Made by a program: the position numbers and the translations under genes
Assembly (NCBI GenBank): GCA_002633005.1
Contig: NMRA01000013.1
Span: 734,995 to 798,994, forward strand
Source of the DNA: Phoronis australis
Taxonomy: Eukaryota > Animalia > Phoronida
Length of the DNA stretch: 64,000 bases
Direction: 5' to 3'
In this document: piece by piece, positions 16,488 through 20,551 of the stretch
How positions within the stretch are numbered: the stretch's first letter is position 1
Layout: each line of letters opens with the position of its first letter
Notes under the pieces: generated by a model
The model's input: only the letters and a program-made list of their open reading frames with translations
The model's database searches: none
Told to the model about the DNA's origin: nothing

Positions 16488-19400
16488 CTAGTACCTGGTG
16501 TACGCTGAACAAAAACTGGTTGGGAAATTTTTAGCATTTTCTAAAAACGACAAGAAGTCTCTCAAGAGATTGACAAAACATATGTCATGATTTAACCTTG
16601 TGTGCTTTCTATAGCGATGTGAAGACGGAATGTCTTCCCCAATCTCTTTTAGCGCCAGCCCAAGCGGACACAGTATTCCCATCTTGAGAACAGATTCGAG
16701 AAGGTCCTTCGTGGCATCATGTAGTGGCCCGTCAGATTCGGCGATGTAATAATATTCCCCTATCATGGCTGCGTCCATACGGCGGCTGAACACTAGCATG
16801 GCGCGAGTATAGTCTGCCAGACTGGTGGGAGTCTGAAAATTTTTTTGGGTCGTAGTTATGTAGATTGTATTGTAATGTAACATTGCCAGTGACTACTGAT
16901 GAATGGATATTTTTTTATTTCAAAATATTACTATTAGCTCTTGAACCTAGTATGATGGATTGTATATAACTTGACTTCTAGATCCCCAGTGACATCATGT
17001 TCGATAGGATGGCGTTTACTACCAGTAGCGAGAACTCTGGTCGCGCGAGATCTCGTTCATCTCGTGACATTGTCAATACAGCAGACCGGGCTCACGTATT
17101 AATAGTATGAATTTCCTGGATGGCTCAAGATCTTCATTTTATTGTTCCAAAACAGTGTTAAGTACTGAACAACAAAGTCACAACCACATTTATATTTTAT
17201 GAACTGAAGTTCCTTGTACGGTATATCACATTTTCGTTTTCTGTTATCAACCATTTCCTGTACTCAGGTTTTATGAAAAATGAAAATTCTGCTATTTCGT
17301 TTGAACAGACCAAAATAACGTTGCAAAGCAACTTCTTTCAAATAAACTTGAGAAGAAGAAGCGATAATTGCCAGTCAGTTACTTCAGAACAAAACGAGGA
17401 GAAACTTGAAACTGTATTGTCGAATATAACTGTTAACACAGTTAAGCTGTGATTTTCTTCGCTTTTTATTGAAAATAAAATAAAATAAAATGTTCGTTCG
17501 TTGAATCAGATCTTTCTTGAGTGCAATGTTTTGTTTCAAATGTCATTTACCTGTGTTAGCCACCTGTGGCGCTCTTGTTGAGCGGAAGAACACCTGCCTC
17601 TAAGAAGACTGCGCGGTAGACGGCTCTCCTAAAAGGAACATCAAAACGTGCATTTTGCGTTGCAATGGAAAGTGTAATGGATGCAGTGAGCAACTTGATA
17701 TTCACGAGGAGATGCTAACGAATAATGTCTAGTCCTCTTTTTAACATCTGGGCTGTGGCCACCGCACTTTACTCGACTCGAAAATTGATGAATTGCGTGT
17801 CTTGCTTCCAGTAATTTTTCAATTGGGCGAGATGTGATTGGTCAATTTTCGAGTTGAGTCTTGAGTAAAGTTTAGCGCTCGCAGGCCCTGAATGGCACGT
17901 ATCTCCACAACGACGTTTCGCTGAATAACGTAATGAAATGCGCATTAAAACCCCGTGCTGTAGGGTCTTGTCTTTCATGCACGCAACCACGCACCCGCGT
18001 ACTTGAACTTCCTCGTTCAAAGCGGCACTTCGTCCCAACTGACAATTTAGACCATTTAACGCTATGGCATTGGTCGCAACTGTTGTACTTAATCACAGGA
18101 GAAATAATGAGTTGTCAGTTATTTCTAAGCCTTCAAATTACACCTATTTTGATAAGAGAACAATTTGAGACGTATTCATAACGGCAGATTGGAAATATTA
18201 CATTAATAAACGGTAGATGGTTTAAATAAAAAATGCAACGAAAGGCCACTTTAACCTACAGCTTTTTGAACACGTTTCAGACCTTTTGCTTTAGGTGTTT
18301 AGGCATTGATACGCCGCTAAATAGTCTAAACATCCTTACCACCTGATCTTTCATTCTCAGCAGTTCTTCCTTTAGCCTCATCAGTTTAGTGGCGAAAAGC
18401 ACTTGTTTAGTTGCATTGCATAAGCTCTCTGGGAAATCTATTGGTTCTGTTTCTTGAATATTTTGCGTGGCGGCGCTGCCGTAGCATGGAGAATTCCAGA
18501 TGATGTTCGCCCGCCGGAACTCGGCTAGGGTGGCATGGATTACGGCCAAAAATGTTAGAATTCCTGAAAACAAGTACAGGTCAAATTCATGTTTGGACAC
18601 TGTTTTCCTAATTAGATTGATTTTCAAAATATCGCCGACCACCGCGCCCTCATTCAGCAGCGGGCTTTAAAAGTGTTGTAAAAGAATGTCTGAGTATGAA
18701 ACTTCCGGTGGTGATTTGTTACTATCTATTTCTTAATTTTCATTGACTTTCCTTTATCATGGATGATAGAAAAAACAATGACCGCTTTGAGATCAATCAC
18801 CTACTGTAAAATGCATGTTACGAGAAGTCCGGTGACGCCTCCGATAACATGAATTATTTCAACCGTCGTTTTAAGGACACAAATTGAGAAAATAATGACA
18901 CCTTGGCTCGTTTGCCATATTCATTTGTCCCCTACCAGGCATGTGAATTTTTTCTGTCCTGTTCCCGATAGAGCTCCCACTAAGCCTCCACGGGTACTCG
19001 TTCGAAAATCCCCGGTACGCACGAGTAAAGTGCAATTCGTCCTCTACGAAATTTTAGTGAAGTTCTGTTTGCATATTTTGATTAACAAAAAACATGTCTT
19101 CCCACCTCGACCAACTTACATGTATGTACATGAATAGATAAATGGACAGCTGTTACAGTCACACCGAAGTCACAGTCTCATAATTCCAAAATGCATGGCG
19201 CTCTTGATTAAAAAAATTATGGTAGTATATTTGTATAAAATTTGAACATGGTAAGGTATTTGGTGCTATATATCTTTCATGAAAAAATGAGAAAATAAAA
19301 TTTCAATTCCATGTCGGCTCTATCGTGTTCTAAATCAGGCGCTTTCGCGTATGTATATTTTCATTTATCATTCACTTAGTCTTTCACCTTGAAGGAAATA

Positions 19401-20551
19401 AACTACAACTGACACATTTCTGCGACCTCTTTCCTAAAAAACTGTAACAAAGAATGCTTCAAACACAAGCATGAAACAACCACAAAACTGTTGAAGCTCT
19501 ATAGGAACAGGCGAAAGATGAATGCACAACATAACCTAATTCCCATCCACCATCTACCGTGGTACCTCCCCATCCACCATCTACCGTGGTACCTCCCCAT
19601 CCACCATCTACCGTGGTACCTCCCCATCCACCATCTACCGTGGTACCTCCCCATCCACCATCTACCGTGGTACCTCCCCATCCACCATCTACCGTGGTAC
19701 CTCCCATACAATCTACTAAAATGTTCTTCAATTCTAAATTCGAAATGCATTTGCAAAGATGATGAGCCCGCCCCGTCAGCGAAAAGTGGAAAAAACAAAG
19801 TATTGCACCGCCTTATCTACCCGTCTCTAAGGGTGAGTGGAGGGAAATCGATTGAAGAGCGGCGTTAAAGGAAGCAAATAGCCGCAGATGGGGATAATTT
19901 GACGTCCCGGTGAAGCTAAAACGAGTTCAAACAACAGATAAACTTGTTGACGGCCGGAGATTTAGGTCATGTCACCCAAAATATATGCCCTTTGCCCAAA
20001 ATGGTCAAACTTATAGGTTCCTTACTACACGACGTTCCGACAATCCAAATAATTTTCAACTACCCCCAGGTATCTGATGGGATATAGTCAAAATTCGCAC
20101 GTTGCGTTCGAGTTGATGAAATAAAAACTTCTGATCGGGGTTTAATCGTATGCCAAAGTAAATTGAAGATTATCAGACTGTTATACCACAAGGACAAATC
20201 TTCGCGTTATTAAAGTAGCTCACAACGATGGTAGTATAGCCAACATATGACGCCTGAGCAAACTCGTTTCAATATTTCAGTTTGAATTAGTTTCATTGGG
20301 ACGAGTATTGGATTTCGATCGAGCACGCGGCACAAAATTTTAACATCGAATCCAAAGTCAACAAGCACTCATTACTTAATTTAAAAGTAACAATAACATA
20401 TGATAATATATTTAAAGATATAACTAAAAACTTCATCCACTTATAGCAGAGTATTTCATCGGATTTCTTGTTGAACTTTCTCATAAACGTGCAACGCAGT
20501 GCATTCAATTAAAAAATAATTCTGGTGATAAATCTTACCGAATAACTTCAT
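16488..20551 (-). CDS. Secreted putative long-chain helical cytokine (Upd/IL-6-like), 219 aa; coding exons 20551-20539, 18563-18340, 17628-17551, 16832-16488
   Basis: All junctions are GT-AG with phases 1/0/0, giving 660 nt in frame. The protein starts MKLFGILTFLAVIHATLA|EFRRANIIWNSPCYG and continues ...LMRLKEELLRMKDQV ESRLPRSLL...WLTQ TPTSLADYTRAMLVFSRRMDAAM...LLESVLKMGILCPLGLALKEIG...HDICFVNLLRDFLSFLENAK. It has a signal peptide and four amphipathic segments, with a TATA box and Inr upstream. The gene model is well supported; the family call is inference. Confidence 0.75.
19542..19708. repeat. 27-bp minisatellite, about 6 near-perfect copies (ccccatccaccatctaccgtggtacct)
   Basis: Direct tandem copies with no spacers, inside intron 1 of the cytokine-like gene. 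Confidence 0.95.

Follow-up and report, generated by a model that had tools for sequence, protein, structure and literature searches.

Class I and class II cytokines are described as sharing a four-helix core (PMC7378365), and BLAST-level matches are usually lacking within the helical cytokine family (PMC5385356, PMC13081863). A 2026 survey places IL-6-family ligands only in vertebrates and Unpaired (Upd) only in insects, with receptors, JAK and STAT reaching back to molluscs or earlier; apart from Upd of insects and a lectin of shrimp, that survey gives no IL-6-like ligand in invertebrates (PMC13203501). As of 2017, Drosophila was the only source of annotated Upd2 homologues (PMC5385356), and an Aedes Upd-like protein was shown to be active in 2025 (10.1101/2025.09.21.677592). 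Profile or structure searches uncovered the mosquito Upd-like protein and lamprey IL-6 only in recent years (10.1101/2025.09.21.677592, PMC13081863). Our literature searches returned no report of such a ligand in other invertebrates. Here, we describe a minus-strand, four-exon candidate gene in 64,000 nucleotides (nt) of the phoronid Phoronis australis (contig NMRA01000013.1; hereafter the window). We consider its product likely to be a long-chain helical cytokine with an up-up-down-down four-helix topology, at a probability of roughly 55%.

The described systems closest to this locus include IL-6 and the pair LIF and OSM. IL-6 genes have five exons and four introns, and exceptions are described as arising only by loss of the signal-peptide intron (PMC13081863). 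In LIF and OSM, an N-terminal arm is tied to helix C by disulfides (C31-C152 in OSM, C34-C156 and C40-C153 in LIF); this tie adds a site 2 receptor contact in these two proteins, which are described as the members of the family able to act without an alpha receptor (PMC11557873, PMC10022904).

Candidate gene model and coding evidence

Direct splicing of the window sequence joins the four exons through three GT-AG introns of phases 1, 0 and 0 into an open frame of 660 nt, encoding 219 amino acids (aa) and a stop (Table 1). The original prediction had described this spliced frame correctly, at the same positions. The open reading frames (ORFs) from which it was assembled do lie at this locus, but as first given they contain intron sequence; the stop-to-stop ORFs run from 18277 to 18666 and from 16488 to 16892. 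Intron 1 also holds a tandem repeat of about 27 nt in some six copies (approximately 19560-19715).

Splice and codon models were trained on the neighbouring MAPKAPK2/3 gene, which we assembled (9 exons, 351 aa), and on a fucosyltransferase gene, with the eight kinase introns serving as the splice training set. All three candidate donors fell within the top 0.4-1.6% of the 7681 GT sites in the window, and the acceptors of exons 2 and 3 within the top 0.14% and 1.5% of 7011 AG sites (bit scores in Table 1). The exon-4 acceptor at 16832 is weak (2.4 bits), with 19.7% of AG sites equal or better, and an out-of-frame alternative at 16785 is stronger (6.6 bits) and would yield a product of 122 aa. 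We also searched for chains in which a micro-exon with the ATG is followed by an exon encoding a signal peptide and then by two further open exons, using 100 simulated windows as the null. Two full four-exon chains were found in the window, both at the candidate locus with two possible first exons, compared to none in the simulated windows; this test is generous because the weakest sites of the candidate itself were used, post hoc, to fix its thresholds. Signal-peptide-like exon pairs were more frequent, with five in the window and at least one in 22 of the 100 simulated windows.

For each of exons 2 to 4, the frame used scored highest of six under the codon model. Exon 4 ranked sixth among the window's open segments, and the five that scored higher were four segments of the training genes and one simple repeat; its best-coding stretch begins two codons ahead of the 16832 acceptor, and its coding signal is confined to the long frame (+6.0 bits versus -44 and -42). 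Codon bias was not significant for exon 2 alone (9/72 null stretches as high) or exon 3 alone (129/1388). The model itself is weak: when trained on one gene, it gave the other true gene a score slightly below zero, close to that of the candidate.

Reads spanning the exon junctions had been proposed as a check on the gene. None were found in four RNA sequencing runs, nor was there depth over most exons; the only link of these runs to the window is the species label, the reads examined made up about 18-19% of each raw run, and a positive control was lacking. The reads placed on the candidate region came from repeats only. Short dispersed-repeat pieces (19258-19305, 14000-14800 and 22405-22443) attract all of the region's RNA reads, with matches that are 90-95% alike and continue into other sequence.

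The silent RNA runs, together with the weak exon-4 acceptor beside the 16785 site and the lack of significant codon bias in exons 2 and 3 taken singly, raise the possibility that the 219-aa product is not made and that the locus is unexpressed, a recent pseudogene or subject to different splicing, for example to the 16785 acceptor. This seems improbable to us given that the frame is intact over 660 nt behind a likely TATA box, that no simulated window held such a chain and that exon 4 carries its coding signal in the long frame only. Furthermore, nothing showed that the RNA runs cover genes of this genome, and an inducible cytokine would often be missing from resting tissue. We treat the locus as very probably a real 219-aa gene.

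Protein features and predicted structure

The candidate protein opens with a hydrophobic stretch (Kyte-Doolittle mean of 2.17 for the best 11 residues) with the rule-based features of a signal peptide, namely Lys at position 2, an uncharged hydrophobic core, and Thr/Ala at -3/-1 of residue 18/19. We found no membrane helix after the signal peptide by sequence analysis. The W-x-x-P-C motif at residues 27-31 and the NAT sequon at 54, the protein's only one, are present as originally described along with this signal-peptide-like start, and six cysteines occur at positions 31, 53, 92, 160, 190 and 213. If cut after residue 18, the mature protein would have 201 aa, a mass of approximately 23.2 kDa and an isoelectric point of 8.5.

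Structure prediction covered single exons. From exon 2, AlphaFold2 without an alignment returned two helices, one corresponding to the signal peptide and the other to residues 50-78 at a predicted local distance difference test (pLDDT) score of about 80. Exon 4 alone was predicted to be all-helical at pLDDT 43, with helices at approximately 110-122, 126-137, 142-155, 159-168, 184-204 and 210-217; fold searches with this low-confidence model of half the protein returned no cytokine among the matches listed. The structural check proposed with the original prediction thus gave a confident helix A and, for exon 4, a model too uncertain to carry the fold. That the product is secreted and helix-rich, and that a real gene encodes such a protein, is well supported.

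The predicted helix A is long (29 residues) and ends at intron 2. Exon 3 encodes a polar stretch of 26 residues with one cysteine, which in length and position would suit the long AB crossover that an up-up-down-down topology requires (PMC7378365). A further helix is predicted to start right behind intron 3, and a long polar stretch would lie ahead of the last long helix. On such a map, helices B, C and D would fall at approximately 108-128, 141-168 and 187-206, and the six cysteines could pair without strain. C31-C160 would anchor the N-terminal arm on helix C in the manner of LIF and OSM; C92-C190 would join the AB loop to the start of helix D; and C53-C213 would join the start of helix A to the tail behind helix D. 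The mature protein, probably secreted after cleavage behind residue 18, may then signal to JAK/STAT through a Domeless/gp130-like receptor. Receptor contact would be made by helices A and C and the tethered arm, with no alpha receptor involved. Expression would be low at rest and induced by injury or infection.

Comparison with known cytokine families

Among the described families, LIF and OSM offer the closest parallel. Like them, the candidate would be secreted with a mature length of about 200 aa, and its C31 (in the arm, before helix A) and C160 (at the end of the putative helix C) would be placed as C31-C152 of OSM and C40-C153 of LIF. LIF and OSM also have a cysteine in the AB loop and another where helix D begins, paralleling the presumed positions of C92 and C190, and their genes have three exons, versus four in the candidate. 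Searches of PDB sequences and with HMMER, run on single exons, gave no sequence match.

With IL-6, the candidate shares an intron located in the part encoding the signal peptide (PMC13081863), which here is in phase 1 and follows nt 13. It differs from IL-6 and G-CSF in the pattern of its six cysteines, in lacking the site III tryptophan and in having no Pfam match on exon pieces; its neighbours are a fucosyltransferase and MAPKAPK2, not TOMM7. The LP-x7-C spacing in the loop exon may resemble that of IL-6, and the original prediction likened the C-terminal amphipathic segment to a string in helix D of human IL-6. Of the four criteria used for lamprey IL-6 (PMC13081863), two describe the candidate, namely a length of 219 aa (range 150-280 aa) and an N-terminal signal peptide. 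The other two call for a predicted up-up-down-down four-helix bundle and for structural likeness to known cytokines; on the fold, only helix 50-78 is confident, and exon 4 is all-helical at pLDDT 43. Unpaired 1-3 and the Aedes Upd-like protein are likewise secreted, glycosylated invertebrate proteins too divergent for BLAST (10.1101/2025.09.21.677592, PMC5385356), with glycosylation of the candidate being predicted from its one sequon. Single exons of the candidate gave no Pfam Unpaired match. Upd proteins are longer than the candidate, and its W-x-x-P-C may resemble an Unpaired W.NPC motif, a likeness drawn in the original prediction.

Several observations weigh against a cytokine. The four best amphipathic windows (72-89, 110-127, 142-159 and 191-208) are not significant as a set, with 110 of 1000 shuffles scoring as well. 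Of the amphipathic segments originally singled out, the C-terminal one (194-203) held up, and LCPLGLAL did not, as it includes a proline and lies where a predicted helix ends. The gene has four exons, not five as in IL-6. In the gp130 family, site III has an FxxK or a Trp where helix D begins (PMC11557873, PMC10022904), and neither is present at the start of the putative helix D here; FxxK occurs once, at 61 within helix A, and Trp only at 27 and 102. Phases 1, 0 and 0 would arise by chance in approximately 7.5% of cases at a 5:3:2 ratio. Introns in phase 1 are reported to be over-represented close to signal peptides but under-represented in the middle of them (PMC7259759). We do not file the candidate in the IL-6, LIF/OSM or Unpaired families because of the four exons, the absent helix D site, the chance of the phases and the merely presumed likeness to the Unpaired motif. 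The original claim of a class I JAK/STAT ligand is partly supported: a long-chain helical cytokine would fit the length, the signal peptide, the intron within it, the helix and exon layout and the cysteine placement, but the gene is not a strict IL-6-family member.

No relative was found by any search. Pfam returned no family for eight exon-level pieces, with Unpaired (PF15972) and other cytokine families included and with filters that drop weak matches. Exon 4 had no relative by HMMER among 1.84 billion representative sequences, and there was none in a word-indexed protein search, in PDB sequences (searched with the candidate exons), in metagenome contigs or as a second copy within the window itself. 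A weak whole-protein match could be missed because all remote searches used single exons. This isolation, the non-significant amphipathicity, the commonness of phase-1 introns near signal peptides and the absence of cytokines from the listed matches of the low-confidence model are what one would expect if the gene encoded a secreted helical protein that is specific to its lineage and has no kinship with cytokines, such as a pheromone, a hormone-like protein or a matrix or mucus protein with three disulfides, the cytokine likeness having been read into a helix-rich orphan. Such a protein would not need a helix A of this length ending at intron 2, a 26-residue loop exon or six cysteines that may all pair sensibly on an up-up-down-down map, and we regard it as possible but unlikely. 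A long-chain helical cytokine remains our preferred explanation.

Table 1. Coordinates of the candidate gene and its flanking signals in the window
Feature	Position	Strand	Details
Exon 1, coding part; ATG micro-exon with phase-1 donor within the signal peptide	20539..20551	-	13 nt; donor 8.8 bits, top 0.4% of 7681 GT sites
Exon 2, residues 5-79; remaining signal peptide, N-terminal arm (W-x-x-P-C31), predicted helix A 50-78 (C53, NAT sequon)	18340..18563	-	224 nt; acceptor 10.9 bits, donor 7.4 bits; AlphaFold2 helix at pLDDT ~80
Exon 3, residues 80-105; putative AB loop with C92	17551..17628	-	78 nt; acceptor 7.7 bits, donor 6.8 bits; weak codon score
Coding part of exon 4 (residues 106-219, stop); putative helices B, C (end C160) and D (start C190), tail with C213	16488..16832	-	345 nt; low-confidence all-helix model
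TATAAA, likely TATA box	20625..20630	-	~75 nt upstream of ATG
Two AATAAA hexamers, possible polyadenylation signals	15445..15542	-	~950-1040 nt past stop
STAT-type TTC-N3/4-GAA sites, five within 1 kb upstream	20658..21332; starts 21332, 21186, 21011, 20722, 20667	-	Weak; equalled in 0.5% of 1-kb windows

Flanking signals and genomic neighborhood

The number of STAT-type sites upstream of the gene is equalled in 0.5% of 1-kb windows, in a test chosen after the fact, and N3 sites alone showed no enrichment there (11.6%). This cluster is a weak hint of possible STAT feedback.

A complete MAPKAPK2/3 orthologue (33766-57950, plus strand, nine coding exons) starts 13.2 kb from the candidate ATG. 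The two genes stand head-to-head with one gene fragment between them. MAPKAPK2 is described as linked to IL-10 in all vertebrates analysed, and IL-10 genes as having five exons, four introns and six helices (PMC4338397). Given this neighbour and the four-helix core common to both classes, the probably secreted, helical product could be a precursor-type class II cytokine (IL-10/interferon-like) still near MAPKAPK2. In a bolder version, the candidate would descend from an ancestral bilaterian helical cytokine, combining, one gene from MAPKAPK2, a class I exon layout and a LIF/OSM-type arm at a class II locus. The candidate differs from IL-10 genes in having four exons, a first intron in phase 1 and another gene fragment between it and the kinase; no IL-10 family motif was matched by Pfam on its exon-level pieces, and the exon-4 model is all-helix only at pLDDT 43. 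Introns of IL-10 genes are all in phase 0, and in humans IL10 and MAPKAPK2 are arranged tail-to-tail. A single neighbour in a single genome is weak synteny, and we rate such an origin as very unlikely.

The fragment between the two genes consists of two exons (25764-25957 and 26279-26390, plus strand) of a signal-peptide-bearing, cysteine-rich protein, for which no Pfam match above the cut-off and no further exons were found; it presumably resembles invertebrate mannose-6-phosphate-receptor-like domains. Inside intron 1 of the kinase gene lies a 400-nt direct duplication (38156-38551 and 39751-40146, 79% identity). Downstream of the candidate is an alpha-1,3-fucosyltransferase ORF (3341-4486, minus strand; Pfam Glyco_transf_10 E value 2.7e-53, plus its N-terminal domain) with its catalytic part in one exon, and just upstream of that ORF is another of 192 aa (4561-5139).

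Elsewhere, the window contains a long (CAT)n-type microsatellite (5630-6130) yielding poly-Ile/His/Asp ORFs, and broken ORFs at 14191-14577 (plus strand) and 31531-32244 (minus strand), which we take to be ends of reverse-transcriptase genes of long interspersed nuclear elements. Rfam matches to tRNA occur at 12211-12283 (plus strand, 69 bits) and 28706-28773 (minus strand, 44 bits), the latter partial, within a dispersed repeat and perhaps a tRNA-derived element. The window has a CpG ratio of 0.79 and 38% G+C, values that, with the overall character of the neighbouring genes, suggest an invertebrate.

Implications

We put the gene forward as a candidate, unproven though open to testing, for the JAK/STAT ligand reported missing in most invertebrates. 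If it folds and acts as proposed, it would name a JAK/STAT ligand in another lineage and give a direct receptor assay. The putative LIF/OSM-type arm would suggest that signalling free of an alpha receptor is the old state. Were the gene instead an ancestral cytokine at MAPKAPK2, it would point to the origin of the IL-10/interferon branch and also supply the phylum's missing JAK/STAT ligand.
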